The position numbers and the translations under genes are program-made. From a virus, in IMG/VR virus record IMGVR_UViG_3300025137_000020, positions 1 through 64,000 of that record: a stretch of 64,000 nucleotides of DNA. One strand, 5' to 3'. Shown here piece by piece: positions 949-55,500 of the stretch (position 1 is its first letter; each line of letters starts with the position of its first letter). The notes under the pieces were generated by a model. The model ran no database searches. It was not told where the DNA came from and saw only the letters and a program-made list of their open reading frames with translations.

Positions 949-1800
949 TTACTTCATACCTTTAATTAAAGCTGCGATTGCGTTGTATGTATCATCGGTA
1001 GCAGCGAGTCCTAATGCTTTAGCAAGCTTTTTAGGGTCCGTTTCTCCACCAGAAACCATTTGATGAAGGTCGCTCATTTTAGCTTCGTCGAGTTCAATGC
1101 CTTCAGAAATAAGCTTTCCAAGTAGAGCCAAATCAAAATATTCTTTTTGCTCTTCTTCTTCACCATCAATTGCTTTTCCAATAGCGGCCCTTTTCTTTTT
1201 AAGGTACTCGTCAGTTTCGTCTTCATCGCCATCATTGTCAATGTCGTCGTCCTCTTTACCTACTGGGTCAAGAGCTTCTTTTTTGACTTCTGGTTCTTCT
1301 GCTTCTATTTCTTCGCCATCTTCTTCTTCTTCGTCCTTGTCTTGGTGACCATCAACTCCTGTTTTAACGTCGATTGTTACTTCATCGTTCGACTTAAAAA
1401 TATTAGCTGCGATTGCTCCGCCTTCGGTCATGTCTTCTTCTTCGTCCTCGTCCTCTTCTTCCTCTTCCTCTTCATTGACGTGAGAACCCGATTTAATAGC
1501 GTCGATAAGGCTAACGATTTCTTCTTCTTCGATTTCATCTTCTGGCTCTTCATCTTCTTTAGAGTCAGCGATCTTTTTAGCAACATCTGCTGCTATTGTT
1601 ACTGGATATTCTTTTCCATCGAATACAAAGCTGTCTTTGCCTTCTTCTTTTGCGGAAGCTGCTGCTCCCATAAAACTAGCGACGTCCTCAGATGTGAGGT
1701 TTGCTACTAGCTCGTAAATACTGGTTTTGCCTTCGACAACTACTTTTGCTGCATCAGCTAGGCCAGCGATATCTTCTAATCTGTGTCCTATAAATGACAT
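949..1800 (-). CDS. Acidic internal head/core-like protein
   Basis: Very E/D-rich. Contains EALDPVGKEDDDIDNDGDEDETDEYL (DxDxDG loop) and several [ILV]xE sites. SD AGGAG upstream of ATG 1800. Confidence 0.6.
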   Translation of the reverse strand: MSFIGHRLEDIAGLADAAKVVVEGKTSIYELVANLTSEDVASFMGAAASAKEEGKDSFVFDGKEYPVTIAADVAKKIADSKEDEEPEDEIEEEEIVSLIDAIKSGSHVNEEEEEEEDEDEEEDMTEGGAIAANIFKSNDEVTIDVKTGVDGHQDKDEEEEDGEEIEAEEPEVKKEALDPVGKEDDDIDNDGDEDETDEYLKKKRAAIGKAIDGEEEEQKEYFDLALLGKLISEGIELDEAKMSDLHQMVSGGETDPKKLAKALGLAATDDTYNAIAALIKGMK

Positions 1801-1815
1801 GTTATTATTCTCCTT

Positions 1816-2121
1816 TTAATTTACCATTAATATTGCGCCGATGCCGGCAGTTACTATTGCCCCTATGACTATTAAGCCAAGTTGAACAACACTTGAAATT
1901 GTTGCTTTTGATTTTGCTAATAGCACCTCTGCATCACGAAGGCGTTCTTCCATTTCATCAAATTTAGTGTGTAGATCATCAATCGATTGCCAGATTGTTA
2001 CTGTCTTTTCTTCAAGACTATGAATCTTCTCCTCGGCACGAGCTAGTGATACTACTGCATCACATAGCTTATCAATCTTTTCCTCGATTCTATCGAGACG
2101 TGTACCTTCGTTTTTATTCAT
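1816..2121 (-). CDS. Coiled-coil protein with C-terminal transmembrane helix (XhlA/holin-like architecture)
   Basis: RLDRIEEKIDKL heptads followed by hydrophobic VVQLGLIVIGAIVTAGIGAILMV. Confidence 0.5.
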   Translation of the reverse strand: MNKNEGTRLDRIEEKIDKLCDAVVSLARAEEKIHSLEEKTVTIWQSIDDLHTKFDEMEERLRDAEVLLAKSKATISSVVQLGLIVIGAIVTAGIGAILMVN

Positions 2122-2122
2122 A

Positions 2123-2473
2123 TTAGTTATCTACTTTAGCAGAGCCTCTCCATTGGTAACAAGACCAGTACCGAGCTTTCCATTTCGGTCCAGGGTTATC
2201 ACAACTATGTCGTGCTCTAAAGTTTTTTCTGCGTTTGGGGTCGTCTCTTTTGATTTCCATATTGGGGTCACCAAATCGAACTACCACAACCGTACCTTTT
2301 TCGTTTTTGACGTATACTTTAAATTTCTTATTCTTATTCTCTGAAGTACGAATAGGATTATTAAGCTCTACTTTCTTACCTTGGTATTCAGCCTCAGTGA
2401 TTAGTAAGTGCTCGTAAAGACCTTCACATGCTTCATCTACCGCATCTTCAGTGTATGTTTTAAATTGCTTCAT
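2123..2473 (-). CDS. Small basic predicted internal head protein (RFGD...RKNFRARH..C...ARYWSC family)
   Basis: CTS-like start MKQFKTYTE. Conserved motif VVRFGDPNM...RRKNFRARHSCD...ARYWSC. Confidence 0.65.
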   Translation of the reverse strand: MKQFKTYTEDAVDEACEGLYEHLLITEAEYQGKKVELNNPIRTSENKNKKFKVYVKNEKGTVVVVRFGDPNMEIKRDDPKRRKNFRARHSCDNPGPKWKARYWSCYQWRGSAKVDN

Positions 2474-4824
2474 TATTTTTTTACTTTAGCAGCGAGGTCT
2501 TTATCAGCTCCACCCCAAGTTCCTTTTGATTTAGTTACAAATGAATTGACTCGGGCGTATCCCCATTGTGTTGGATTAGTACCTGGTCTATGTCCGGTTC
2601 TCCATGCTGCGACTCCGCGGTTGAAGACTTGTTTTAGAATGCCATAGGAAATACCAGTCTTGTCAGCTTTCTTTTGTAGTGCGTCCAATTTCTTTTCTTT
2701 TACCGTCGTTTTTTCGAACATCTCGTAAGGAAGGTTTTTCTTCTTATTGTATTCTAGCTTTCTAAGTTTTTCTCTAAACGCCTTTGAACGACCATCTAAT
2801 CCTTTGGGGTCGGCTTCGTCAAATAGAGCAATCAATGCGTTTAAGAGTTTTCCTTTTTGCAGTAAATCTCTTGAAGACTTATCGCCAAGAGCTGTCATGA
2901 TCGTCTCTTGAGATGCGGTCTTAAGTTTCTTAAACATAACGGCGATTTCTTTCGGAGTATCACCGCGTTTAATCATGTAAACTACATTGCCGGCAGTCTT
3001 CTTATCAGAACCTTTGAACTTTAGTTTATCTAATGCTTTAGACTCTTTAATTTCAGCTTCTTCGCTGTTGATGCTTTGGAGTTCTTCTTCTATTGACTCA
3101 TTCTTACGAAGAAGGAGTTCTCTATTTAGCATTGATATTGTTTTCTTAGCTCGGGTAACTCCTTTAAAAGCTTTAAGTAAGTCTAATATATCTTGTTTGG
3201 AAAGTTTGACGAGCTGAGCTGCAGTAGCTTCTTCAATTGATTCTAGTTTAGTCAGTTTCTTCTTAAGCATATCGACATACTTATTACCACCATACATCTT
3301 AACCATACGAGCATCTGGATTTTTAATTAGTGCTTTAAGGTCTTTGATTAGAAGTTGCTTTTCAGAAGCTTCATCAAGACTTTCTGCAAACATGTTATAT
3401 CCACGAACGTCTTCTTCGTCTTGCATTTTCTTTATAAACTTTTCTGCGGAGGTTTGATTTGGAAAAGACTTTTTCATCTTCTTACCATTCCACAGTTCGA
3501 CTGAAGCGACTACTTTCTTTGCTTCTTCAAGGTCAGTAGATTCTCCGATTGTATCAACCTCAGGTTGTTTTTGAATATAACGAATAATAGGCTTTTCATT
3601 TGGAACAATCATACTGAGACCAGATTTGTCAATGCTTGTATCCCACGAACTAAATTTGTTTCTCAGTTTCTTTTTAAGTCTTAACGCGGCTTGCTTAGTT
3701 AAAGCTTTAACTACTACACGGCGGCCATCTTTCACACCTATGTTTTCTTCAATACTATTAGATTCTCCTAACACCGCATCAACACTACCACCTGGAACTA
3801 GTGCGGGATTGCCTTTCATTTGCTTAATCCCTTTCTTAATAGCTTCGGCTGAGTTACGTGCTTTTACATCCACTGTCTGGCCCTTGAAGAGTTTACCAGC
3901 TTTCTTAGTAATAGTTACTGTCCAAAATTTGATTGCTTCATTAACAGATTCGTTGACTTCGTCGTTCATGTCAATTTCCATCTCAGACAATCCCTTCAAG
4001 CCGGCTTTCTTACGGAGAATGTTTAGCGCTTTAATTGTTTCTCTTTGCTTTGGTGAACCAGGAATCTGTTTCAGAGCTAGAGTTGTAAGCTTAAGCATGT
4101 CTGCGTCATTATGCTCGTCAACTGCATCGACCTCAGCATCGTCTTCGGCTTCGTCGGCTTGGCCATCTGTATAATCTAAGGTGTCTTCTTCGTCTTCGTC
4201 TACATCTACAACTCTTTTTAATACAGAGCTTGATTCATAGCTATCGTTATCTTCGCACTTTTGTTTAAGCTCAGCTAAATCGTTTTCATCTTTATACCAG
4301 CTTGACTTAACCTCTTCTCCCGTACTCTTCTGTGCTATCAATTGAAATTCTGTTCTTTCTGCTAAATCCCTTTTAAACGCCGCTAAGGCGATAGTCGACT
4401 CATAAAGAGAATAGTTAGTTATGTCGATAGGACGCTTTTCTAAAAAGGCTTCTAAAACTGCTTCGGCTTCACTCGGAAATGAAGTCTTTAAAATTTCTAA
4501 ACGATAATTAATCATAGTGTTTTCCTTTGCTGGTACCCGGGTTCTTTTTCCTTTAGGTGCTTTTCGTGGTGTAAATAAATCAGTTGATGGTATTTTTTTC
4601 ATGGGTGCACCAGAGAAAAATACTAAAGAGCCATCGTCGTCAAGGGCGGGATAATATTGGTCTGGGCGCTTATCAATATCCATTTTAATACCCAGCTTAA
4701 CTCGACCGGTGAGTTTACTAGTCGCAACAGCAATATTATGCTTCTTAGATAAAGATTTCTTTCGAAACTTATTACCCAATCTCCATGTCTTTGCTAAATC
4801 AACTGCCTGCTTTTTGTTTAACAT
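2473..4824 (-). CDS. Modular predicted internal head polyprotein with C-terminal DUF5824-like domain
   Basis: Tandem basic modules separated by ES-x(0-2)-[ILV]-[DEN]-E linkers. C-terminal LKQVFNRGVAAWRTGHRPG...QWGYARVNSF motif. Late promoter at 4834-4841. Confidence 0.65.
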   Translation of the reverse strand: MLNKKQAVDLAKTWRLGNKFRKKSLSKKHNIAVATSKLTGRVKLGIKMDIDKRPDQYYPALDDDGSLVFFSGAPMKKIPSTDLFTPRKAPKGKRTRVPAKENTMINYRLEILKTSFPSEAEAVLEAFLEKRPIDITNYSLYESTIALAAFKRDLAERTEFQLIAQKSTGEEVKSSWYKDENDLAELKQKCEDNDSYESSSVLKRVVDVDEDEEDTLDYTDGQADEAEDDAEVDAVDEHNDADMLKLTTLALKQIPGSPKQRETIKALNILRKKAGLKGLSEMEIDMNDEVNESVNEAIKFWTVTITKKAGKLFKGQTVDVKARNSAEAIKKGIKQMKGNPALVPGGSVDAVLGESNSIEENIGVKDGRRVVVKALTKQAALRLKKKLRNKFSSWDTSIDKSGLSMIVPNEKPIIRYIQKQPEVDTIGESTDLEEAKKVVASVELWNGKKMKKSFPNQTSAEKFIKKMQDEEDVRGYNMFAESLDEASEKQLLIKDLKALIKNPDARMVKMYGGNKYVDMLKKKLTKLESIEEATAAQLVKLSKQDILDLLKAFKGVTRAKKTISMLNRELLLRKNESIEEELQSINSEEAEIKESKALDKLKFKGSDKKTAGNVVYMIKRGDTPKEIAVMFKKLKTASQETIMTALGDKSSRDLLQKGKLLNALIALFDEADPKGLDGRSKAFREKLRKLEYNKKKNLPYEMFEKTTVKEKKLDALQKKADKTGISYGILKQVFNRGVAAWRTGHRPGTNPTQWGYARVNSFVTKSKGTWGGADKDLAAKVKK

Positions 4825-4833
4825 ACTAATCTC

Positions 4834-4841
4834 TATTTATA
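4834..4841 (-). promoter_or_regulatory. T4-type late promoter TATAAATA
   Basis: Exact consensus 9 nt upstream of ATG 4824. Confidence 0.8.
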
Positions 4842-4846
4842 CGATT

Positions 4847-7282
4847 TTACCCGCCAAACTCATGGCCAGCTACTCTTTTCATTTGCTTTTTAAATTCTGC
4901 GAAGTTAGGCTTAGTTTTATACAGCTTAATACTTATTTCTGCTCTTTCTTTTCCTTTGATTCTCCACTCGTAACCTTTGGCTTTGTGCTCAGGTTTAGTT
5001 GTTCGAACTACGCGTCTTTCAAATCCATTCTCCCAAGTCTCGCTCTTCTTTTCTTCTAAATCTTTTTCTTCGGGTACACAATTAGGAACATTCTTATTTC
5101 CCTTTTTCTTCATACCTACTTGCTTATAGCCATCCCAACAACCATCTGCTTCGTCTACCTCTTCGCCTGGGGTGTTCTTTTTATATTTTTTCGTTAGCTT
5201 ATCTGTTCCAAGTTCACCGTAGGTTTCTTTAAATGATTTAGTAGATTCTACTACCCATTCTTGGCCTTTTGGAACATACTTTTGAATCTTTCGTAGAATA
5301 TCTTTTTCGATATCAGTGTGTTTCATAGGTGGCTTACCTGATTCCTTAACCTTAAAGTATAAAGCATCTTTGAGAAACTGTCCGCCTTTATCGCTCTTTT
5401 TCAAATCACTATCTACACCAATCTTATTGAAGGCGAAGGTAATATCTCCGTCCATATATTTCTTTAGGCCTTTGCCCATCTTCACAATATCTAACATTGT
5501 TTGTGATGCGCCTCTATGAGTATTTACTAGAATTTCAATTGGTACTACTCTACCTCTTGTCGGATCGGTGTTCTGAGACTTAGCAACTTCTACATCGTTT
5601 ACTACCCATACGATATGAATATTCTTAGTAGGATAGCTTGCGCCTTGAAGAAGTCTAGTTATGTTGTCTAGCTTTCTTAAATCTTTTAGTGTGACATCGA
5701 ATATAACATTGGGCTTATCTTCAGGTTGCTTAGTCATTACCGATGTAAAGAATGCTGCCATCTTCTTATTAGGAAGATTCAATTCATCTGCTACTATACT
5801 GTGAAGTTTACTTACGTCGCCACTTCTAGTTAAATCGAATTTAGAAAGTTCTTGGCCAGTTTTGTCTTTAACAATCTGAGCAATCTTCGGTGCCTTGAGG
5901 ACTAATCTCTTTAATTCATCAACATCAAACTTCTTACCTTCCATGCCGATAAGATTGTCAAGTACAAATCCTTTACCGGAACCGGCTCCTCCAGCTAGAA
6001 TTAGTGCATGACCTGATTTAGGATATGCTTTTTTAGCGAAGGTAATTAGCTTCTCGTCAAGTTGAACATCCTCGACCATTGTGTATCCTAACTTAGGTAC
6101 ATTGTTATATCTTTCAAGCTCTTGTCCACTCGGTGTTTGAATTGATACTCCACCTTTAATCTTTACGATTTTAAGAGAGCTTGCTTTAGAACCGTATTCC
6201 TTCTTCAACTCCTTTTTGAGCTGAACCATGGTCATGTATTTAGTTTTTTCACCAAACATCTGTTGATACTTCTTTGTGTGTTTAGATGGTTTGGTTTTTG
6301 CAGTAGCATCACCGGGAGCGGGTTCGTATGCCGAATCATCATCGTCGTCTTTAGCTGCGCCTTTCTTAAAATGAGCGTCTCTTTTATCTTTAGTAGACTT
6401 GGACATCTCTTTACCTTTAGCATCTTTTCCATAATACTTAGCGGGTTGAGTGCCCTTTTTGTCTTTTACGTCTGGGTCTTGCTTAACTTCTGACAAATCT
6501 TGAATCCAATACTTTTTACCGATTGAAGATACAATGTAGTTTGGCTTTCTTTCTGATATAGTTACAATCTTGTTTTCTTTATTATAAACGGTGTCTCCAA
6601 CATTAAACACTTCGCCTCTAGCATATAATTCTCTTATATCTGATACTTTATCAAGTTGCACGTGTTCTCTAAAGTCGTTAACTTTCTTTAAGCCCATTGC
6701 TTTTCTTAATGCATTGAAGAGTTCGGCAGCACCAGAATAACCTTTCGGTAATCCATTTTGAAATAATTTAAAATCGCCATCTGATGCAGCAGTTCTCATC
6801 TTAGATGCTGACATGCCAGTTACGCCTTCAGCGTCTGGATCACGTTCTCCAGCCGATACTACATTAATGCCGTTGACGAAATTATAATATCCATGTCTAG
6901 CCTTTGTGTCGTTATACTTTTTCAATAAGCTATCAAAGTCTTGCACTCTATCACCACCAACAACCATAGTGATTTTATTATATCCCATATCATAAAGGTC
7001 TGAAGCGATGGCTAATGCATTATTGACCTTATTATTCATTACAATACTTCTTGCATGCTTTGGGAACATTTTGCGCATGAAGCGAATCTTATCTTTGTAT
7101 ACTAAAGGATTCTTTTTTGGGTCATTGGACGTGGATGCGTAAATCTTATAGTCTTTACTCTTTGCCACCTTAGCAATTTTGTCCATTAGCTTTTGGTGAC
7201 CGGTGGTAGGCGGGTTAAATCTGCCGAAAGTAAAAAATACTTCTTTTTCCTTTGCTTCATTAAATTGTTTAAATGACTTCAT
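4847..7282 (-). CDS. Cytidyltransferase-like (HxGH) nucleotidyltransferase fused to a P-loop kinase (AAA_33/zeta-like) and small modules; predicted head-packaged
   Basis: FTFGRFNPPTTGHQKL, VVGGDRV and GMSASKMR (HxGH/KMSKS-type fold). Walker A LAGGAGSGKG at ~5970-5995, then NVIFDVT and RVVPIEIL. CTS-like start MKSFKQFNE; CWDGYKQVG...VPNCVPE module. Confidence 0.8.
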   Translation of the reverse strand: MKSFKQFNEAKEKEVFFTFGRFNPPTTGHQKLMDKIAKVAKSKDYKIYASTSNDPKKNPLVYKDKIRFMRKMFPKHARSIVMNNKVNNALAIASDLYDMGYNKITMVVGGDRVQDFDSLLKKYNDTKARHGYYNFVNGINVVSAGERDPDAEGVTGMSASKMRTAASDGDFKLFQNGLPKGYSGAAELFNALRKAMGLKKVNDFREHVQLDKVSDIRELYARGEVFNVGDTVYNKENKIVTISERKPNYIVSSIGKKYWIQDLSEVKQDPDVKDKKGTQPAKYYGKDAKGKEMSKSTKDKRDAHFKKGAAKDDDDDSAYEPAPGDATAKTKPSKHTKKYQQMFGEKTKYMTMVQLKKELKKEYGSKASSLKIVKIKGGVSIQTPSGQELERYNNVPKLGYTMVEDVQLDEKLITFAKKAYPKSGHALILAGGAGSGKGFVLDNLIGMEGKKFDVDELKRLVLKAPKIAQIVKDKTGQELSKFDLTRSGDVSKLHSIVADELNLPNKKMAAFFTSVMTKQPEDKPNVIFDVTLKDLRKLDNITRLLQGASYPTKNIHIVWVVNDVEVAKSQNTDPTRGRVVPIEILVNTHRGASQTMLDIVKMGKGLKKYMDGDITFAFNKIGVDSDLKKSDKGGQFLKDALYFKVKESGKPPMKHTDIEKDILRKIQKYVPKGQEWVVESTKSFKETYGELGTDKLTKKYKKNTPGEEVDEADGCWDGYKQVGMKKKGNKNVPNCVPEEKDLEEKKSETWENGFERRVVRTTKPEHKAKGYEWRIKGKERAEISIKLYKTKPNFAEFKKQMKRVAGHEFGG

Positions 7283-7286
7283 ACTA

Positions 7287-7661
7287 CTATTTATCTTCGT
7301 TTGAGGATGCCCTAAATCTCTTCAATCTTTCTTTTTCCGCTTTCTTAACTTTAGGCAAAAGCTTTCGTGCTATCCGGCCGATTGCCGATTGTTTCTTTTT
7401 AAGTTTCTTTTCTAATGATTCCCGTTCTGCAAATGATAAGTCGCTCGGGTTTCTGTTCTTTAAAATCTTTTTAGTCAAAATCTTTCTAGCCAGTTTTCTA
7501 GCTCGGTTTTCTAGCTTTTCGGGTGTAGCCATTTTCCGCATCGCGAGCTTTTTCTTACGAGCAATTTTCTTAGCCATCCGCCGCATCTTCTGTCCTCGCT
7601 TAATTCTTTGAGCGCGAGTAAGAGCTTCGTCGGTTTGTGTGTATTCTTTAAATGATATCAT
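7287..7661 (-). CDS. Highly basic predicted internal head (DNA-binding) protein
   Basis: ATG 7661 overlaps the upstream stop (ATGA). Start MISFKEYTQTDE|A is CTS-like; remainder is very K/R-rich and helical. Confidence 0.65.
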   Translation of the reverse strand: MISFKEYTQTDEALTRAQRIKRGQKMRRMAKKIARKKKLAMRKMATPEKLENRARKLARKILTKKILKNRNPSDLSFAERESLEKKLKKKQSAIGRIARKLLPKVKKAEKERLKRFRASSNEDK

Positions 7662-8890
7662 TTTTCCCAACCCTTAATTACGTCTTTTGAAAAGTTATTA
7701 TAAGAAAACTCTAATCTATCTACAAGCTTAATTGCCCCGCCGCCAATCTTATCAATTGCAACAAACCCTTCTTGGCCCGTAACTTTAAATCCTTGTTTAG
7801 TTCTAACAAAAGTATTCATACTCTTAACCTTATCGAGTTTAGATATAATAAGTTCCTTTGCAACCACCAACTGCTTTTGTAGTTCGAACACTAGTTCTAA
7901 ATTCTTTTTGTTAGAAGCGGAGAAGAACTTAAGTCTTTCGTCTTTCTTCTGAACAACTTTTTCTTTTCCAGCTGCGCTCTTTCTCTTGTCAACCTCTTTA
8001 GTGTATCTTTGTTCATACCATTTGAGAAGATTGACAACATGCTTCTTTGAATCTTTAATCTTTTCTCCGGCTCTTACATATGTGTTATTGAATGTTTCGA
8101 GTTCTTGAGAAAGACTTGGGTCCTTTTCGATTTGTCTGAGTGTAGAGCCTTGAATCTTTTGGAATATCTTTCCTGCCACTGAAAGAGCTTTGGTAACCTC
8201 GTCGGTTTCTTCTTTTGACAATAGAGTACCAGACACATCTTTCAAACCAGCATCGTCAAAGAAGATTGAATCTGACTGCTTAAATGAGCCTGTGGCAACC
8301 TTATAAGTTGCTTTCATCGATTCAAAATCACTTCCGTTGTATGTGGTGTGAAAGATAATACCAATTTTAGCTTTATTAATCTTCTTGCCTAAATCAGATT
8401 TGACTGGTACTGCGTATACAATCGTGTTTGGTTGAAACGTATAATAGTTTTCCCCATCAATCGTTTCAGTATCTACATCATCAGTAAATAGTAAATCTCC
8501 CTGTACTACCCCTTTGATTCCTAACTTACTTAGTTCTGATAAAGCTACTTTGAGTTTGGATGCAAGGTCACCAGATGTATCGGCATCTACGTCTGCATTT
8601 GTTTTATAGACTTTAGGATTCTTATTGAAGATTCCTTTCTTAGCCACAAAGAATTTTCCATCGCTTGGGTCGATTCCAGCAAATACTGCAGGAGCACCAT
8701 CCCATTTAACAGTTACGTCGGTTGTCTTTGAAGATTCTCCGGCTAACATATCTCTCATACCACGAAGAGCAAAGATTGCTTCTCGAGCTCCTTTTACACC
8801 ACCATATAATACTCGGTCCTCAATATGAGTCATGTGAGTATTCTTACCGGGTGCTGATGCTTCAGCAATATATGATTTGAAATTAATCAT
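7658..8890 (-). CDS. DUF6267-like protein with ligase/covalent nucleotidyltransferase motifs; predicted head-packaged
   Basis: TVKWDGAP (motif I KxDG, 8696-8707), VVQGDLLF (III-like), GQEGFVAID (IV), AIKLVDR (V). Start MINFKSYIAE|A resembles the T4 CTS. Confidence 0.7.
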   Translation of the reverse strand: MINFKSYIAEASAPGKNTHMTHIEDRVLYGGVKGAREAIFALRGMRDMLAGESSKTTDVTVKWDGAPAVFAGIDPSDGKFFVAKKGIFNKNPKVYKTNADVDADTSGDLASKLKVALSELSKLGIKGVVQGDLLFTDDVDTETIDGENYYTFQPNTIVYAVPVKSDLGKKINKAKIGIIFHTTYNGSDFESMKATYKVATGSFKQSDSIFFDDAGLKDVSGTLLSKEETDEVTKALSVAGKIFQKIQGSTLRQIEKDPSLSQELETFNNTYVRAGEKIKDSKKHVVNLLKWYEQRYTKEVDKRKSAAGKEKVVQKKDERLKFFSASNKKNLELVFELQKQLVVAKELIISKLDKVKSMNTFVRTKQGFKVTGQEGFVAIDKIGGGAIKLVDRLEFSYNNFSKDVIKGWEK

Positions 8891-11043
8891 GGTTTTAATA
8901 TTACCTTTGCTTGTTTAATAATACCTTTTGGTCCAACTGATTTTTTTAAATATTTCACTAAAGCTTGAACTGCTTTTTTAAACGCGCCTTTAAAAGTAAA
9001 ATCTCCATCGTCTAAAACCATATTGCCCATCGCACGAATTGGAACCTTATAGTCAAACTTCCACGTGTCATTGCCTTTAGGTCTTTGACCTCCGTGTTTA
9101 GATGACCATTTTAATATATCAATATTAAACGGAATAGAGCCAAAGATTTCTTCTAATTCCCTTTCTTGCAAACTCTGAGCGTGCTCTTTAAAAGTAGTCT
9201 GTTCTACCACGTTGAGGTCTTTAAATTTCTTTTGTACTTCTGGGTGCCACTGATATGTCGTATTAAGTTTTCCGGTTACACCCGACTTTGACCTTTGGGT
9301 TTTCATTGCAATAGGAATACGCTTGCCGTCTTTAGTTATAGCATATACAAAAATGTTTCTTCCGGTAATCGCGCCAGTCTTCGAGTTCTTAGTAACCTCT
9401 TCACCATCACCTGGTTTACCAACATCGAAGTGAGTAATAAAATCGTCGGTAGATTCTATATTAAGTGCAGCTTTGATTTGCTCAGCTTCTACTACAGTAC
9501 CGCCCATATTTAAATTAAACAGGCCTGGATATTTTCCTACGCCTTCACCATCTTCACCATCGACAACTCCAAGATGGAGCTTATCAATTATATTCTTGCC
9601 TTCAAGATAGTCTCCTAACCCTTTAGATTCTCCGTTCGGCAATTTGATTTGCGTTTGATTTAGCTTATCGTTAGTTTCTCTTTGTACGTCTAAGCTTCTT
9701 TTCTTAATCTTGCCTAAGTTGACCTTAACATCGTTTTGAGCGCCGACTCTTTGAATCAGCTTAATCATATCCGTCGAAGGCTCTTTGGTTTTATTAGGAT
9801 CAGCCATGTAATCAATAAATGCTTTAAGCTGCTCTTCTTCACTAGCATCGTCTGCAACCGAAAATCTATTCTTAGTCTTAGTTCCTGTAAAGATTGATTT
9901 CTTACCGCCGACAAATCTAGACGCAACTAAAGGGTCTGCTTTTATCTTTTCAATAGCAGCTGTCATATCTACCTTCTGTAGACCTTGCCCTAGTGGTACT
10001 CCGACATCTTTAAGTGCAGCTTCAGCTGAGATCAAAGCCTTCTGACCATCTTCGATAATTGCGATGGCTTTAGCTTTTGTTTCTTCTTTAAGTTTTAAGC
10101 CAGAAATGACATCTTTCATTTGGTCTGACTCTTTGTTAGGTGTTGAATTGGCTTGGATATCTGATGTCGAAATCTTATCCGAGTGGAATGTTACAACTCC
10201 TCGGCCTTTGTTATCAATTGCAATTGAGGAAGTATCGGACGGATTCTCTCCACCACCACTCACTCTTATAAATTCTACTAATTGGGCTCTAGGAATCTCT
10301 ACACCTTTATTAGTATAAAAAGGACCTGCACTAGCTTTGATTAATTCGACCTGTGCTTCGATTGACTGTGAATGGCCATAGAAATTTCTAATTTTAGCTG
10401 GGGGAATAACTTTGCCGTCTTCAGCAAGTGCGTCAATCGCTTTAGTCATTTTCTTATGTTTTTGCATGCCAGACTTGGCAGTAGAACCCATAAGAGCAAA
10501 TAGCTTTTTATCTAAGCCTTCTCGTTCTCCTCTTTTAAATGTCTCACCGCCTGAGTTCTGTTTACCGAGGGTAGTGTCTTTGACTTGATTGTATAAAGCT
10601 CTCTGAAGTTCTTCTTCGGTAATATCTGGTTTAAGTGTAATAATGTTGGACGCTTCACCCGACATAATTTCCTGCATCATCGACCCCGCGTTTCCAGGTG
10701 CTGGTTTAAACCCATCTACTTCATTATAGCCAATATCTAATCCTTTCTGCTTAATGGCTCCATCAGAAAATTTGTCATCTCTGTCTCCTAGCTTTCCACG
10801 AGAAGGTGCATTTGACGTCGCAGTTGATTTTTTAGAAGGTTGAGCTTTATCAGATGGCGTTGTGTCTGATTTAGGGTCTGCTTTGGCAATTGGTTCTAAC
10901 CTTTTTCCGTCGTCAGATGCTTTGAAAGACGGTTTATCGCCTTTCTTTTTTCCATATACACCTCGGCCAAAATGGACTAATCCCATTTTCTTGGCTTTGT
11001 CTGATGCTTCTGATTCGTGTAACTTAAAACTTTTAATTGACAT
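8887..11043 (-). CDS. Large modular predicted internal head protein, function unknown
   Basis: CTS-like start MSIKSFKLHE|S followed by an ASDKAKKMGL...GRGVYG module. Internal FKEH...LQE/LEE site precedes a small C-terminal module. Late promoter at 11090-11097. Confidence 0.55.
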   Translation of the reverse strand: MSIKSFKLHESEASDKAKKMGLVHFGRGVYGKKKGDKPSFKASDDGKRLEPIAKADPKSDTTPSDKAQPSKKSTATSNAPSRGKLGDRDDKFSDGAIKQKGLDIGYNEVDGFKPAPGNAGSMMQEIMSGEASNIITLKPDITEEELQRALYNQVKDTTLGKQNSGGETFKRGEREGLDKKLFALMGSTAKSGMQKHKKMTKAIDALAEDGKVIPPAKIRNFYGHSQSIEAQVELIKASAGPFYTNKGVEIPRAQLVEFIRVSGGGENPSDTSSIAIDNKGRGVVTFHSDKISTSDIQANSTPNKESDQMKDVISGLKLKEETKAKAIAIIEDGQKALISAEAALKDVGVPLGQGLQKVDMTAAIEKIKADPLVASRFVGGKKSIFTGTKTKNRFSVADDASEEEQLKAFIDYMADPNKTKEPSTDMIKLIQRVGAQNDVKVNLGKIKKRSLDVQRETNDKLNQTQIKLPNGESKGLGDYLEGKNIIDKLHLGVVDGEDGEGVGKYPGLFNLNMGGTVVEAEQIKAALNIESTDDFITHFDVGKPGDGEEVTKNSKTGAITGRNIFVYAITKDGKRIPIAMKTQRSKSGVTGKLNTTYQWHPEVQKKFKDLNVVEQTTFKEHAQSLQERELEEIFGSIPFNIDILKWSSKHGGQRPKGNDTWKFDYKVPIRAMGNMVLDDGDFTFKGAFKKAVQALVKYLKKSVGPKGIIKQAKVILKP

Positions 11044-11089
11044 GCAGTGTTCCCATAAAAATAAAATTGTTAGGTCATTCTAACAATAC

Positions 11090-11097
11090 TATTTATA
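11090..11097 (-). promoter_or_regulatory. T4-type late promoter TATAAATA heading the head-cargo cluster
   Basis: Exact consensus, followed by a hairpin ATTGTTAG...CTAACAAT in the leader. Confidence 0.8.
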
Positions 11098-11109
11098 AGA
11101 AAAACTATT

Positions 11110-11571
11110 TTAAGTGGGGTCGTTTATAAAGCCGCCTCTAATATTTTTATCGTCAATCCATTGGTTAAATAATCCTAGTTCCATACCATACGCTTCGATT
11201 TCCCATGGCAATTCCCAATACTTGTCTGTAGTACGATATCGTTTACCATACCACGCTGAATACGAAATTGACTCTGTGTGTGCCAGTTCTTTTCGTGAGA
11301 ACTGTTTGACATGAACCATCTCGTGAGCTACGGATAGCAGTTTCTTACGAAGTGACATACCTTTGTCGACTTTGATTTCGAATGTATTTAAGTCTTCGGT
11401 GTCAATGCAGTTAGCCCAATCGCCTTCTGTATCTCTAAGATTGGTTACTTGTACAATATCAACCTCTAGGTTTTTCTTTCGAGGCATCATCTTGTATACA
11501 CAATAATAAGCAAGAGACACGATTAGTTCCCGCTCGCGCTTAGGACCGGTGGTTTCTATGGTTATTGCCAT
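11110..11571 (-). CDS. HExxH zinc metallopeptidase-like protein
   Basis: VAHEMVHVKQ zincin motif with downstream YWELPWEIEAY (third-ligand E). Confidence 0.75.
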   Translation of the reverse strand: MAITIETTGPKRERELIVSLAYYCVYKMMPRKKNLEVDIVQVTNLRDTEGDWANCIDTEDLNTFEIKVDKGMSLRKKLLSVAHEMVHVKQFSRKELAHTESISYSAWYGKRYRTTDKYWELPWEIEAYGMELGLFNQWIDDKNIRGGFINDPT

Positions 11572-11957
11572 TAATAAACGATCTCTTTAGTTTTTAGAAC
11601 ATCTTCTTTAGCGGTCGATTTGAAAAACTCATCGACGTTGTGAGCCTTGTCATCAATCCAAACATCATAGTGTGGTTTGCCAACTTTGAAGCTGCTGTAT
11701 TTTACACCCCACTTGTCTAACTGATTCTTAGTCAGCTCATGCTTAGCGTGGTAGTTGCCAGTGCTCGAACCTCGAGCTGTGTAATAATTAATTGTGTGAC
11801 CTTTATCGTGAAGGTCGTTGAAGTATTGGATTCGGTCCATGTAAGGTACCGCACGGGTTTCGTCATTGTCAATTCTCCCGTCTTTGTTGAGGTAGAGCTC
11901 AAGAGAACAAATCGTTCCGTCGATGTCTACTATGAATGTTTTTAAGTTATCTGCCAT
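11571..11957 (-). CDS. HAD-superfamily phosphatase (small, EcbF/BcbF-like)
   Basis: FIVDIDGTIC (DxDGT), YYTARG, GKPHYDVWIDDKA. Confidence 0.8.
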   Translation of the reverse strand: MADNLKTFIVDIDGTICSLELYLNKDGRIDNDETRAVPYMDRIQYFNDLHDKGHTINYYTARGSSTGNYHAKHELTKNQLDKWGVKYSSFKVGKPHYDVWIDDKAHNVDEFFKSTAKEDVLKTKEIVY

Positions 11958-25361: not shown

Positions 25362-26756
25362 TTAAAATGCTTCGCTATTTAATTTAGCGGTAGCATTGAC
25401 ATACCGACTCATTAGAGGTGAAAGTCCATCACTTTCTTCTTTCACTTCTTCTACCATGACTTCGGTTTTTGTATTTTTGTTTTCAGATTTTACGGTTTCT
25501 GCAACTGTACTTTTCTTCGAGAAATAAGATTCACGAACGATTTTAGCTTTCTTGGAGAACGCCTCGGCCGATTCAAATACGATATCTTTAGTAAGTTCTT
25601 TGAACTTAGCAACATCAGTATCGGCTAGACCTTCAGATAGTTCAGTGACAAGAGAAGCTTTCTTCAAAACAATTACTTCTTCAGCAAGTGCATTGATTGT
25701 TTCTTCTTTTGATTCAACATCTTCGGTTAGTTCTGCATTTTGTTGAGCTACTTCGTCGAACATATCTGTCTTACCTTCTGGCATTTCGATATAATGTTCG
25801 ATGAATGTGGATTTAAGAGAAGACATAAAGCCTTCTGCAATATCCGAGCGAAGAGTATTAGTAACAGCAACTTCGTTCTTCTCAATCCATTGTTCAGCTA
25901 CATAAGTTAAGTAGCTGTCAATCTTATCGATAAGACCTTCATGAAGTTCATTAACTTCTTCAGATACATAATCAGCATAAGATTCTTCGATCGATTGTAC
26001 GTGTTCTCTGACCTTTGAGGTTACAGCAGCTTCAAAAATAGTCGAGGCTTTAGTCTTGAATTCTTCAGTTAAAGAATCGTCTTCAGCACAGAGTGCGTCT
26101 AAGTCTTCTTTCATTGAACCATAACTAGCTTCGATTTTTTTCATTGCATGAGCTGTAGCTGCAGCGGTGATTGTTTTAGAGATTTGGTTAATAGCAGAAT
26201 CAACATCATCGCTCGGCTCTTCTGAACCTTCGATTCCGTCGTCTTCTTCTGACTCCTCTACCTCTTCTATATCGTCGTCGCCATCGTCGTCTTCGTCTTC
26301 ATCGCCATCGTCGTCACCGACAACTTCGTCTTCAACTTCGTCTTCCATGTCGTCTTCTGCATCATCTGCTTCAACTTCTACTTCATCAGTATCAACTTCG
26401 TCTTCGTCTTCGTCTTCTTGCTCTTCTTCGCCATCTTCGTCTTCTGCAACTTCATCTTCAGATACTTCGGCAGAACCTTCGATTCCGTCTTCTTCTTCAG
26501 TTTCAGTTACGTCTTCTTCTTCTTTCTCAGTTTCAGTGTCATCACCTTCTTCTGAGTCTTCAGCACCTTGATCTTCATCTTCGCCCCATACTTTAAAGAC
26601 TGCAGCCTCTTCAACAGCTTCTTCAGTAGTTTCTTCAACCACTGTTTCTGCTGCTTTGGATTCTACCTCTTCATTCTCTAGGAGTTCGGACTCAAGGCCA
26701 CCGATACCAGAAATGGTTTCTAGTATTGATTTTTGTTCTTTTTGATTTTTGGCCAT
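25362..26756 (-). CDS. gp22: Prohead core scaffold protein with long acidic N-terminal region
   Basis: LTEEFKTKASTIFEAAV, IDSYLTYVAEQWIEKNEVAV, FIEHYIEMPEGK, MSRYV; between gp21 and gp23. Confidence 0.93.
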   Translation of the reverse strand: MAKNQKEQKSILETISGIGGLESELLENEEVESKAAETVVEETTEEAVEEAAVFKVWGEDEDQGAEDSEEGDDTETEKEEEDVTETEEEDGIEGSAEVSEDEVAEDEDGEEEQEDEDEDEVDTDEVEVEADDAEDDMEDEVEDEVVGDDDGDEDEDDDGDDDIEEVEESEEDDGIEGSEEPSDDVDSAINQISKTITAAATAHAMKKIEASYGSMKEDLDALCAEDDSLTEEFKTKASTIFEAAVTSKVREHVQSIEESYADYVSEEVNELHEGLIDKIDSYLTYVAEQWIEKNEVAVTNTLRSDIAEGFMSSLKSTFIEHYIEMPEGKTDMFDEVAQQNAELTEDVESKEETINALAEEVIVLKKASLVTELSEGLADTDVAKFKELTKDIVFESAEAFSKKAKIVRESYFSKKSTVAETVKSENKNTKTEVMVEEVKEESDGLSPLMSRYVNATAKLNSEAF

Positions 26757-26775: not shown

Positions 26776-27417
26776 TTAGAGTTTGGAGAGGAAATCCTTA
26801 AACACCTGTTCTTGTACAGAAGCTAGTTCTGCGGAAGAGGCTTTACGAATTTCAGTCTCATATTTTTCAAGTTGCTGAGCTTTCAATATTCCATTATCCC
26901 ATATCCACTCTACGCCTTCCATAATGCCATCTACGAAAGCACCTTGGGCTGAGGGGTCTTGGACAATGTCTACTGTAGAGAGTATGTAGTCACTATTGAC
27001 ATACGTAGCTCCCTGTTTATTCTCAACTGTTCCCATACCACGGCTAGAGACGCCAAGCTTAACTCCACCTTCAATAAGACCTTCAACGATCTTACCCATA
27101 GGGGTGTTAAGAATTTGCGCCTTTCCAACAACATCATCACCATTAAATTTTAATTCGGTGATTTTGTGTGAAACTTTATCGAGGTTAATTTGTGGACCTT
27201 CTGGGTGGTCTAACTCTCCCACCGCACGTCCTTGACTAACCTGTTCGGTGACGTATTTTTCAACGGCATCGAATAAAATGTCTTTAGGATAGACTCGGCC
27301 ATTTCTATTTTTCTTTGCAGCCTGCATAAAGATACCTTCAATGAAAGTATGTTTTTTGCCATCCTTTTCTTCTGTAAGATAATTTAAATTATCGTAATGT
27401 TCTGTTATTAATCTCAT
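26776..27417 (-). CDS. gp21: Prohead protease
   Basis: IEGIFMQA..KNRNGRVYP, GELDHP, GVSSRGMG, DIVQDPSA. Confidence 0.98.
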   Translation of the reverse strand: MRLITEHYDNLNYLTEEKDGKKHTFIEGIFMQAAKKNRNGRVYPKDILFDAVEKYVTEQVSQGRAVGELDHPEGPQINLDKVSHKITELKFNGDDVVGKAQILNTPMGKIVEGLIEGGVKLGVSSRGMGTVENKQGATYVNSDYILSTVDIVQDPSAQGAFVDGIMEGVEWIWDNGILKAQQLEKYETEIRKASSAELASVQEQVFKDFLSKL

Positions 27418-52551: not shown

Positions 52552-55500
52552 TTAAAAATCAAAATCACCAGACTCAACTCCACCGTCTGTAATTTCTATT
52601 GATTTACCTCCACCCGAAACTGCTGTTACTAATAGTGTTCTGGCATTAGAAACTATGTTTGTCGGTGTAGTGTCATTAGGAGAATCATATTGTGCTCCTG
52701 CAAAATATTTTGTACTGCCCATAGTAAATTTGATGTCTGACGTATCAGTATCATTAAACGTAACAGCATTACCACTTACTGGATTCACTGCTATATCAAC
52801 AATTGGGTTTTGTTGGTCTGATGCATCAACTACTTTAAATGTGCCACTCCTGCCTGTGCCAGTTACCCGCATTCCATTTACTATAGTGCCTGTTGGTGCT
52901 CCGGCTAATCTAATTGTAGTTTCTTTAAATATAATAGATTTACCATTCCCAATGTCGCCCGTAAGAGGACTACTTAATTCAATTGCACTCTGTCCAATAC
53001 TAACAATTGTAACAGTTCCTGTTGGAAAATTAGCATTTGTTGATGTTACCACCATTCCGGTCGATAAGCTACTCATACTATTACCGCTTTTGCCAGTTAT
53101 AGTATGCACTCCCAACTTAGTATCTCCATTTATATACGGTCTTTTTATTACTACATTATTTCCTAAATTTCCTGTAGGAGCTGAACTTATAGTTATCTGA
53201 CTATTTGGTACATCAATATTGGTAATTGTAATTGTACCAGATGGCCAAGTCGATGCGGTACAGGTTAACACATCGCCGATATTTAAATCTGCAATTGTAT
53301 TTGTATAGCCATCTCTAAATCCATCGATTGCAAATGTAGCAGATGCTGCAGCAGTTTGATTTCTATCAAAGGTGAATACAGAACTTTTAGCAGTAGGTGC
53401 TACTCCAAATGTTCCAGTTGCATCTTCAATAGTACCAGTAGGTAATGTAAAGTACGCGTTATTCGCCCAAGATACATAGCATCTACTTAGTTCATCGCTA
53501 TTAAATGTGGTTCCTGCAAAATCTATTTCCGGTCCAACCGTCGCTCTACTTAAAGAACTTAGATTTAATTTATGAAATCCAATTAGCTTAACTCCACTTC
53601 CAATATTTTTAAACGCAGCATTCAATGTAGTTACATTAGTCGTATCCAAACCTCTTACATCAATATGTCTAAGACTTGAACAATTTTCAAACAGTGTTCT
53701 TAAATTAGTAAGATTTGAAGTATTACTAATTCCTTTAATAGAAATGAAGTCGGTTAGTCCGGTACAACCTTTTAGTGATAATGATGCACTAGTACTACCA
53801 CCTTGTACTAACGCCGAATTACCCAAATAGAATTTTCTTAAGTGTGTTTTGAAATTAGCTCGAGCTGCTGTTAATTGTATTGCAGTGATTCCAGTTACCG
53901 CCGCGGATGGACCTGAACTATTAATAGCCCCCACATTAAATTTGTGGTATGTACCAGCCACTTTAATTATAAATCGTTGTGGTGATGCAGTTTCAGTATA
54001 CACGTGATACAAATCGCGGTCTCTCGATGTGTCTACTTGATTTGAGGTGCCGTCACCCCAATCGATTGAGATGTTATGGCCATTCGACGACTGATCTTTT
54101 TGGAATGGCAATATAATCATATTAGTATTAGTACCACCAGAAGCTGGAATTTCAATTTCTATCAGAGTTTCGACTGGTGCGCCAGTACTTATAAGTGAGC
54201 CATTAATTTCATCTGAATATTCAATACCATTTTTAATTTCGTCAATTGTCACTGAAAAGTCTTGGCCTTCAATAATATGACTGTAATTGCTAATAGCTTC
54301 ATCTGCATTTAATATAGGTGTCTTCCAATTAATAATTTGAATTTTCTTTTCATAATCATCTGCACCTAATTTATACTTAGCTTTGCCACTAGTAAGTTCT
54401 TCAATAGATGGTTCTAAGCCATTAACTTCATCGATTCGTGGAGCATAGAATTGTACTGGGTGTTCGGCATCTAATGGATTAGCATTCTGAAGAACAGTCA
54501 GCTGAATCTTAGTCATAGCAGAATTAAATTTCCAATCTCCACGACTTGTAGAAGCTGGTAATGTACGAACTTTCAGTGGATTAGTACTTGGAAGATAGAT
54601 ACCACTATCTTCGTGGTCTGTAGTTCCTACATGCCCGAATGGTCTAATATGTCCGACTACTAAGAACCATTGATTTTCATTCAGTGGGTTTCCATCGGGC
54701 GATGAGGTTGTAGTTGAATTTAATCCAAAGTCAAAGTCATCTATAAATGTTGGTGTATTTATTTCATCACCGCTGGTAATGTTTATAGCTTCAAGTGTCG
54801 CACCAGAATCATTAAGTCCTTTCCATCTAAATACTTTAATACCACCGTCTGTAGTGTCATAAGGATTTACTCCTGCAGCGTATCTAACATCAGAAGCTTT
54901 AACCCATACTGACATTCGATATGTTTTACGTGTATCTACATCTACTTGTGGGCTTATAAATCCACCATCAGCAAAACTTATTACTTTACCGCTACTTGTA
55001 TTAATAGTACCACTTACTAAATTTGCCCTGCCTATAAATTCTGTGCCGGAGGTAGTTAATGTTTGACCGGCTTTAATCTTAACTAAAATATTTGCTGTTT
55101 CATATACACCCGCTGCAGTAGTTTTACCATAATTAACTCCACCATCCGTAATAGTAATTGATGTTGGTTTACCACCGCTTACTACAATCGTAGCTTTAGC
55201 TCCAACACCCACGGCATCTGAATCATTCGGCGAATCGGTTATTTCTACATTAGTGTATGTTCCATTAGTATATCCACTACCAGCTACATATCCTGTGCCA
55301 CTTAAAAATATACTAGAAAGTTTTGCCCAGTCACCATCTTTATTTCTGGCCTCCCATAATACATCTGTACTTCCAAATGGTGTTACACCTTCGAGCTGAA
55401 CGTTTTCTTGCGTTGTTCTAAATGGAGAGTTACTTCCACTATTAAAGGCAATTGGGTTACCTAGAGCTTCAAAATTATTATTGGTTCCGGTACCGACTGT

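Follow-up and report, generated by a model that had tools for sequence, protein, structure and literature searches.

Why should unrelated, apparently late genes of a marine phage begin with almost the same ten residues? Could such a peptide mark proteins that are carried inside the virus particle? We asked these questions of a window of 64,000 nucleotides (positions 1 to 64,000 of IMG/VR record IMGVR_UViG_3300025137_000020), in which a reading of the sequence alone had proposed that the minus-strand locus 949-11097 encodes capsid-targeted cargo proteins that are cut by a phage protease. The window is part of a 105-kb contig from an uncultured marine T4-like myovirus and encodes the T4 core genes for the portal gp20, the prohead protease gp21, the scaffold gp22, the major capsid protein gp23, UvsY and others. 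We are fairly confident that 949-11097 is an internal-protein (head cargo) region, whose products would be made late, docked through a leader peptide, relieved of that leader by gp21 after a glutamate and, being basic, kept with the DNA, with fused cargo cut at linkers derived from the leader. The proteins that bear the leader, or tag, are very probably packed in the virus particle.

A shared leader on predicted late genes

Eight minus-strand genes, arranged head to tail, make up the locus. Five of them begin with a leader of the pattern M-x-x-F-K-x-[YF]-[IL]-x-E:

2447-2473, minus strand: leader MKQFKTYTE of the 116-aa protein (gene start 2473)
7256-7282, minus strand: leader MKSFKQFNE of the 811-aa protein (gene start 7282)
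7626-7661, minus strand: leader MISFKEYTQTDE of the 124-aa protein (ATG at 7661, three codons within a TTG-started open reading frame, ORF)
8861-8890, minus strand: leader MINFKSYIAE of the 410-aa protein (gene start 8890)
11014-11043, minus strand: leader MSIKSFKLHE of the 718-aa protein (gene start 11043)

The sequence-only reading had counted the peptide on five of six consecutive genes. All five N-termini are as it described them, but its count passed over the untagged genes for a 101-aa and a 283-aa protein. After removal of the leader, all tagged proteins are basic, with isoelectric points (pI) of 9.3-11.8.

How specific is the leader to this locus? When each ATG of the 105-kb genome, in all six frames, is taken as a start, the expression ^M.{1,4}FK.[YFL].{1,4}E matches five times, and four of these matches are gene starts of the locus. 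A position weight matrix built from 38 distinct foreign N-termini of orthologues of the 410-aa protein (family DUF6267), and independent of the other genes in the window, places the best three of 99 gene starts in the locus and ranks all five leaders within the best 16 of 32,858 proteome positions; the enrichment that the sequence-only reading had expected from such a scan is thus present. The motif was not found in other late genes (gp23, gp20, gp18 and the tail genes). Within this genome, the leader is confined to the late locus 949-11097.

The T4 capsid targeting sequence (CTS) is MKTYQEFIAE (PMC8442874), and suppressor genetics assigned targeting to its residues 4 and 7 and processing to residues 8 and 10 (PMC9026906). 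MINFKSYIAE carries F4, Y7, I8 and E10 and fits these positions exactly; the remaining four leaders fit with shifts of one or two residues. The consensus of 120 orthologues reads M-x-[ST]-F-K-[TSEQ]-[YF]-[IL]-[STA]-E, and one foreign orthologue leader, MKTFKEFITE, is identical to the T4 CTS at 7/10 residues. The proposed similarity therefore holds up as a close match at functional positions 4, 7, 8 and 10, conserved at the protein level both among orthologues and across over 100 unrelated ORFs in related phages. At conserved residues of the leader the synonymous codons vary freely (six Ser and three Ile codons are used, for instance), so selection acts on the peptide. The DUF6267 proteins of cyanophages P-HM2 and S-SM1 have no leader and begin directly at the mature KNTHLEHLED, which identifies the leader as a separable module; in an AlphaFold model (AF2) of the DUF6267 protein, the leader is disordered (first 18 residues).

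How far does the leader extend beyond this genome? A megablast search with the locus in 50,697 phage records returned zero matches, and no record of a near-identical phage was found among them. At the protein level the nearest kin comprise Phage C48C1, at 56% for its DUF6267 protein, along with the OM43 phages Melnitz, Stenotrophomonas phage DLP_6, Pelagibacter phage HTVC008M and several hundred cyanomyoviruses. We counted ATG starts reaching the matrix threshold in 80 related IMG/VR contigs (833 kb) and obtained 203 on the gene strand and 0 on the opposite strand; these loci hold 113 distinct tagged N-termini on ORFs of 66-605 aa beyond the 400-420-aa length class of DUF6267. In the complete 156-kb genome of C48C1, a strict DNA pattern for the leader has 4 matches, all at 61.8-68.1 kb, and Melnitz has 1; neither genome has reverse-strand matches or matches to a control pattern. 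In complete relatives, then, the strict motif occurs only in this locus. The syntenic genes of C48C1 and Melnitz start with MMLDFKNFITE, MLSFKQFVSE, MITFKKYLEE, MKKFKQYIDE, MQGFKTFLSE and MKKFSEIIE, and DUF6267 of DLP_6 starts with MMKFTQFLAE. The annotated start of the C48C1 cytidyltransferase (OQ984149; L001 10622-10688), MNPPTIGH..., lies too far downstream and cuts into the HxGH region; a GTG 22 codons upstream yields the full-length protein, (M)IKNFSQYLLE.

Perfect T4 late promoter boxes at two positions divide the cluster into two predicted late operons, and the presumed partners of the leader are encoded in the same window:

11090-11097, minus strand: late promoter TATAAATA, exact match, heading the operon of the 718-, 410-, 124- and 811-aa genes
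4834-4841, minus strand: second late promoter TATAAATA, exact match, heading the 783-, 116-, 101- and 283-aa genes
26776-27417, minus strand: gp21 prohead protease, presumed processing enzyme (phrog_207, E 5e-76)
25362-26756, minus strand: gp22 scaffold, presumed docking partner of the leader (phrog_237, E 7e-60)

The window contains 17 TATAAATA boxes versus 7.6 expected, and the remainder precede gp20, gp18 and other late structural genes. Late expression, as the sequence-only reading had it, is thus predicted from exact promoters, but from only two of them and not from one for each gene; its placement of gp21 in the window is correct. The gp23 protein has an aligned I-N-E site. As a separate observation, the C-terminus of gp21 (26779-26811) reads EQVFKDFLSKL and scores 8.7 with the CTS matrix, and residues 279-290 of gp22 (within 25362-26756) include SYLTYVAE and score 7.8; the leader may mimic a segment by which scaffold or protease self-associates.

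Do proteins of this kind occur in virus particles? Purified virions of cyanophage S-SM1 were analysed by Sullivan et al. 2010 (PMC3037559). The syntenic locus of that phage runs from SSM1_188 to SSM1_192, with gene lengths in agreement with the annotation, and the parts of Table S8 of PMC3037559 that were examined list four of its products in virions:

SSM1_190 (T4-GC190, 'cytidylyltransferase'): 25 peptides
SSM1_188 (GC1453): 12 peptides
SSM1_191 (GC1454): 10 peptides
SSM1_192 (GC1455): 7 peptides

The N-terminus of SSM1_190 is MKKFSAFLNE and that of SSM1_192 is MLSFKELQE. Both proteins are tagged and both were detected, so, by these entries, two tag-bearing proteins of the syntenic locus are in particles. 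The untagged S-SM1 DUF6267 (GC71) is not listed in the same parts of the table. This pattern of listed and unlisted proteins is consistent with tag-dependent loading.

Fused cassettes and enzyme folds

Two of the tagged proteins carry further copies of the motif, and each copy lies where the sequence-only reading had placed it:

8887-11043, minus strand: 718-aa cargo protein with leader, small N-domain, core and a fused C-terminal 93-aa module
9163-9198, minus strand: internal CTS-like linker TTFKEHAQSLQE, residues 616-627 of the 718-aa protein, at a fusion joint
4847-7282, minus strand: 811-aa fused cargo with leader, HxGH nucleotidyltransferase (residues ~10-290), linker, P-loop kinase (405-676), mini-module and 64-aa end module
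5213-5242, minus strand: internal CTS-like motif TKSFKETYGE, residues 681-690 of the 811-aa protein, at a fusion joint

TKSFKETYGE separates the kinase domain, whose end is near residue 676, from the module that comes after it. In two related loci (L021 and L030) the orthologous ORFs stop exactly at the equivalent of residue 679, and in L030 a new tagged gene, MKSFREYMTE, starts right at that end; the window has Thr for its Met. The mini-module that follows in the 811-aa protein (CWDGY...VPNCVP) matches a standalone tagged gene (L043:7421, start MKTFKEYAE), and the 64-aa end module is 83% identical to another (L048:7686, start MKTFSQYISE). The 718-aa protein repeats this arrangement. Its last 93 aa show 83% identity to a standalone 102-aa gene (L017:2201-2509, start MKTFKEHLEE), in an alignment that starts directly after the leader, and its joint is disordered in the AF2 model (residues 614-630, pLDDT below 50). 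Among the 58 members of the 718-aa family, the end module is limited to tag-bearing close orthologues, while the others stop at about residue 610; the fused orthologues retain a TFKE... or SF.E...LEE linker. One homologue of 1239 aa (P0130) joins the 718-aa family to DUF6267 and keeps EVTSFKSITE at the joint. Growth by fusion of cargo genes, as had been suggested, is what the relatives display at both internal motifs, in the form of a gene end or a separate tagged gene; their gene boundaries show directly that the 718-aa and 811-aa proteins are mergers of several once-separate tagged genes. The suggestion that plain [ILV]-x-E sites separate the modules fared worse: the density of [LI]xE in the cargo equals the shuffled expectation (z -1.4 to +1.0, with +2.3 for the 116-aa protein) and carries no statistical weight.

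DUF6267 has taken part in such fusions as well. Its longer homologues of 526-532 aa (P0002, P0004, P0025, P0029 and P0103) have an extra front module of ~120 aa and keep the leader internally, for example as ...FAVEDGFKKYVEILE|ATKAGKNVHMTHIED.

Distant homologues of the 718-aa protein (P0134-P0226), some of them on contigs of 217-524 kb, have no CTS and a different conserved N-domain, ...L.EW.YRV.DG.P....N..H..... The core seems to be joined to differing N-terminal modules in other phage groups.

What kinds of proteins does the leader precede? The 811-aa protein is an HxGH nucleotidyltransferase joined to a zeta/Pnk-type P-loop kinase. Its first domain matches PF01467 (23.1 bits versus a cut-off of 21) and has the (H/T)xGH motif GRFNPPTTGH at residues 20-29; NCBIfam gives weak matches of NMNAT type only (TIGR01526 at 25.6 bits, far under cut-off), so that the nucleotidyltransferase may be called weakly NMNAT-like. 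The second domain matches PF06414 (23.9 bits versus 22.3), has the Walker A motif GGAGSGKG at 431-438, and falls in Atlas with Zeta toxin clusters (0.95 by features, TM 0.80) and polynucleotide kinase clusters (0.57/0.81). The phrog matches of the protein are phrog_395, phrog_3041 and phrog_5268.

The 410-aa protein is encoded in the same operon:

7658-8890, minus strand: 410-aa DUF6267 protein, leader MINFKSYIAE, with KWDG at 8696-8707

It is a covalent nucleotidyltransferase of RNA-ligase-like type. K62, D64 and G65 of its motif I KxDG are invariant in 42 sequences, and the protein has the adenylyltransferase fold together with a helical insert of ~130 aa; at the sequence level it does not match the Rnl families. 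Pfam returns only PF19782, NCBIfam nothing, and phmmer and profile searches against the PDB nothing. In view of this lack of profile membership, we class it as superfamily-like and not as Rnl1, Rnl2 or another named family.

For the core of the 718-aa protein, a HinP1I/MspI-type PD-(D/E)xK nuclease fold is possible. Pfam searches with the 58 family members, at E up to 5, gave scattered chance hits only and no R-HINP1I; Foldseek with the model gave nothing with E below 0.1; and phmmer and profile searches of PDB sequences with the DUF6267, 811-aa and 718-aa proteins gave nothing meaningful.

From leader to function

How might the locus work? The cargo genes would be transcribed late, and five of their products would emerge with a T4-type N-terminal CTS. 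By analogy with T4, the leader would dock each protein on the gp22 scaffold core during prohead assembly, and gp21 would then cleave after the Glu and remove the leader, leaving basic mature proteins that would be retained in the head with the DNA. The genes behave as small cassettes that recombine, split and fuse. The 718- and 811-aa proteins, with their tag-like, Glu-ending, disordered linkers at the joints, are probably cut there, and the untagged 783-aa chain is probably processed in the same way at ES-x-[ILV]-x-E linkers.

T4 injects its internal proteins (IPs) as well as Alt, and GmrSD is blocked by Ip1-3 (Silas et al. 2025, PMC12373910). Because of this precedent we infer injection here too, as well as a purpose: the cargo would most likely be a pre-made enzyme kit for RNA end repair, for nucleotide or NAD chemistry and perhaps for an attack on host DNA. 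We rank RNA end repair first, since a ligase-like enzyme and a Pnk-like kinase occur together with a neighbour that is HAD phosphatase-like; NAD or nucleotide chemistry would come second, and third an attack by the possible nuclease on the DNA of the host. The neighbour in question is the following gene:

11571-11957, minus strand: 128-aa protein of HAD phosphatase-like type, containing DIDGT, immediately upstream of the cargo operon

It matches phrog_415 'polynucleotide kinase' (E 4e-10) and, weakly, PF25109 HAD_PNKP, and may be the phosphatase that works alongside the packaged kinase and ligase-like enzymes.

A bolder version of this idea is doubtful. It holds that abundant marine T4-like phages deliver, together with their DNA, a tag-loaded kit of ligase-like enzyme, Pnk/zeta kinase, NMNAT-like enzyme and HinP1I/MspI-fold nuclease, partly as polyproteins cut by the head protease, and that the kit repairs RNA or rebuilds NAD and attacks unmodified host DNA before any phage expression. 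The phage's own DNA would be spared since it is probably hypermodified. Outside the window, at 95233-101074 of the genome contig (L087), lie genes for a thymidylate-synthase-family enzyme, a dCMP deaminase, an APH-like kinase, a small cytidylyltransferase, a C5 DNA methylase-like protein and an AGT-like DNA glucosyltransferase (24.3 bits, just below cut-off). Judged by the thymidylate-synthase-family, dCMP deaminase, AGT-like and C5-methylase-like genes among them, the DNA may be hypermodified as in T-even phages.

Several results weigh against the head-cargo reading. Three of the leaders fall one residue short or run two over, ending in F-N-E, Y-T-E or T-D-E instead of [LI]-x-E, which makes their cleavage uncertain, and MSIKSFKLHE is offset by two residues. 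The 783-aa (start 4824), 101-aa and 283-aa proteins of the same locus are without the motif. The tag does not occur throughout the family: strict and relaxed DNA patterns for the leader found nothing above control in HTVC008M and P-HM2, and HTVC008M has no more than looser forms, MLSFTGYSNLSE among them. Nor is it the sole route into the virion, given that untagged SSM1_188 and SSM1_191 also appear in the examined parts of Table S8. Those entries speak of detection in virions and not of location in the head, cleavage or injection, and the cargo of the present phage is known from its sequence alone.

Might the tagged proteins be loaded into the prohead and yet act only within the particle, by condensing DNA, neutralising charge, forming parts of the scaffold core or working as head-internal enzymes on packaged DNA? 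The basic character of every mature product (pI 9.3-11.8) would suit such a role, as would the histone-like composition of the 124-aa protein and the scaffold-like look of the acidic 283-aa protein, whose S-SM1 homologue is among the virion proteins in the Table S8 entries used here. We nevertheless think it unlikely. The T4 proteins that bear the same tag are injected (PMC12373910); a ligase-like enzyme, a kinase and a nucleotidyltransferase require nucleotide cofactors, which are not expected in a filled head; and the cassette-like turnover of the cargo suits an arms race better than a structural role.

Does the shared N-terminus serve targeting at all? It could be a 5' gene end kept by cassette recombination, or an element of late genes that acts on translation or at the mRNA level: the leaders do stand at cassette boundaries, where genes shuffle, and the region is A+T-rich, as are the codons for Lys, Phe and Glu. 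Against this stand the free variation of synonymous codons at conserved residues, the lack of the motif in gp23, gp20, gp18 and the tail genes, its persistence inside fused proteins, where no initiation role is possible, and the tagged S-SM1 proteins recorded in virions in the examined entries; we regard the idea as very improbable. We give just as little credence to a convergent likeness to the T4 CTS, with the peptide, as a pro-sequence or docking tag, leading elsewhere, for example to the baseplate or tail lumen, to the membrane or to a chaperone. Such a destination would draw on the shortness of the comparison, some ten residues, on the large and unusual tail and baseplate genes of this phage, and on S-SM1 entries that place the proteins in virions without placing them within the virion. 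Yet the match covers precisely those four positions that T4 genetics had mapped, the phage has homologues of gp21, gp22 and gp23, and the leader is without a signal-peptide-like hydrophobic core. The head-cargo reading remains the one we prefer.

Should the tag act as in T4, sequence alone would reveal the set of packed proteins in a very abundant group of ocean phages, among them relatives of pelagiphages, OM43 phages and cyanophages. A puzzle of 2010 would be accounted for as well, the 'cytidylyltransferase' and neighbouring unknown proteins in purified S-SM1 particles, and T4-like head cargo would extend beyond small inhibitors to whole enzymes, evolving by the fusing and splitting of tagged cassettes. 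RNA repair, NAD chemistry and nuclease activities would then be testable candidates for counter-defence at time zero, and the leaders would offer natural alternatives to the T4 tag for loading foreign proteins into phage heads.

Remaining genes and known systems

The other genes of the cluster differ in how they relate to the leader:

7287-7661, minus strand: 124-aa very basic protein; minus its leader MISFKEYTQTDE, 13.2 kDa and pI 11.8
2473-4824, minus strand: 783-aa Lys-rich chain of mini-modules, no N-terminal CTS, DUF5824 module at the end (PF19141, E 1.3e-16)
2123-2473, minus strand: 116-aa DUF5754-like protein, leader MKQFKTYTE
1816-2121, minus strand: 101-aa coiled-coil protein with C-terminal membrane helix and a conserved RLDRIEEK motif
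949-1800, minus strand: 283-aa very acidic protein, pI 4.1, no leader

The 124-aa protein is the closest analogue of the T4 internal proteins, and its orthologues are tagged in most related loci (MKSFKEYTE, MVSFKQYLTE and MLSFKQFVSE, for example). Six linkers of the form ES-x(0-2)-[ILV]-[DEN]-E, spaced 47-74 residues apart, divide the 783-aa chain at 3082-3951; the same expression matches only twice in the other ~33,000 residues of the genome. A CTS on this 'polyprotein' was considered and rejected, there being none at the N-terminus. The mini-modules reappear, reordered, in ORFs of other loci, and for the first 215 residues no homologue was found among 85 related loci. DUF5824 occurs in relatives either as a standalone tagged gene of 79-90 aa (MIKFKAYINE, MITFKKYLEE) or as the C-terminus of the nucleotidyltransferase. 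In the 116-aa protein, a second canonical site, LLITE (2393-2407), comes directly before the conserved AEYxGxKV core; its orthologues start with MKKFKQYIDE, MKNFKEHLNE and MMRFKEYISE. The 101-aa protein lies within the cargo cluster of many relatives, never with a leader, and is probably not cargo. The 283-aa protein is 60% identical over 48 aa (BLASTP) to SSM1_191 (T4-GC1454), the homologue found in S-SM1 virions. Farther away, a single minus-strand ORF of 3677 aa fills 52552-63585 in the tail/baseplate region, and two more, of 1771 and 1732 aa, lie close by; for structural proteins, all three are unusually large.

How does the locus compare with known systems? The CTS and the internal proteins of T-even phages are already known, as are polyvalent proteins as virion-delivered multi-domain effectors (PMC9503650). 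In the literature searched, no publication connected the CTS with cyanophages or with other T4-like phages of the sea; the single review that came up does not draw the connection. What is new, then, is that the tag stands on large enzymes of a marine T4-like lineage, that tagged cassettes undergo fusion and fission while keeping their linkers, and that the S-SM1 virion proteins find an explanation.

With the T4 internal proteins the cluster shares a leader of ~10 residues with an aromatic or hydrophobic residue at 4 and 7, I/L at 8 and Glu at 10; predicted late expression alongside gp21, gp22 and gp23 in one phage; basic mature products; and a hyperplastic, cassette-like locus of unrelated cargo with only the leader in common. 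The T4 proteins, however, are non-enzymatic GmrSD inhibitors of 8-20 kDa, whereas the cargo here comprises enzymes of 44-90 kDa and fused multi-module proteins that keep internal tag-like linkers. The T4 CTS has Y-Q at positions 4-5 in place of F-K, and the hosts here are marine heterotrophs, with a cargo as yet read only from genes. T4 Alt is a large enzyme that enters the head by means of its N-terminal propeptide, undergoes processing by gp21 and is injected (PMC9026906; PMC9503650); it resembles the cargo in size and in the manner of packing presumed here. It differs in its enzymology (an ART domain was not found in the cargo of this phage) and in being single-domain cargo and not a cassette fusion.

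Like the polyvalent proteins (Iyer, Burroughs, Anand, de Souza & Aravind 2017; summarised in PMC9503650), the fused proteins combine several effector domains in one chain proposed to be virion-delivered and released by proteolysis, with rapid domain shuffling. Polyvalent proteins are usually giant, often linked to MuF or portal and equipped with their own peptidases, whereas the fusions here are modest, carry a T4 CTS, presumably rely on the head maturation protease and have unfused states in sister phages. The ejection and inner-body proteins of phiKZ and SPN3US (PMC5694885) are likewise cut by a gp21-family protease after the Glu of a short x-E motif, many of them losing N-terminal propeptides; these propeptides are mostly longer than 100 residues, the motif is A/S-x-E, and there is no common decapeptide leader (PMC5694885). 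T4 Pnkp with Rnl1/Rnl2 is expressed early or in the middle phase and is not packaged, but it offers the same combination as the present cluster: a ligase-fold enzyme with invariant KxDG, a Pnk/zeta-type P-loop kinase and, here in the adjoining gene at 11571-11957, a HAD phosphatase-like protein.

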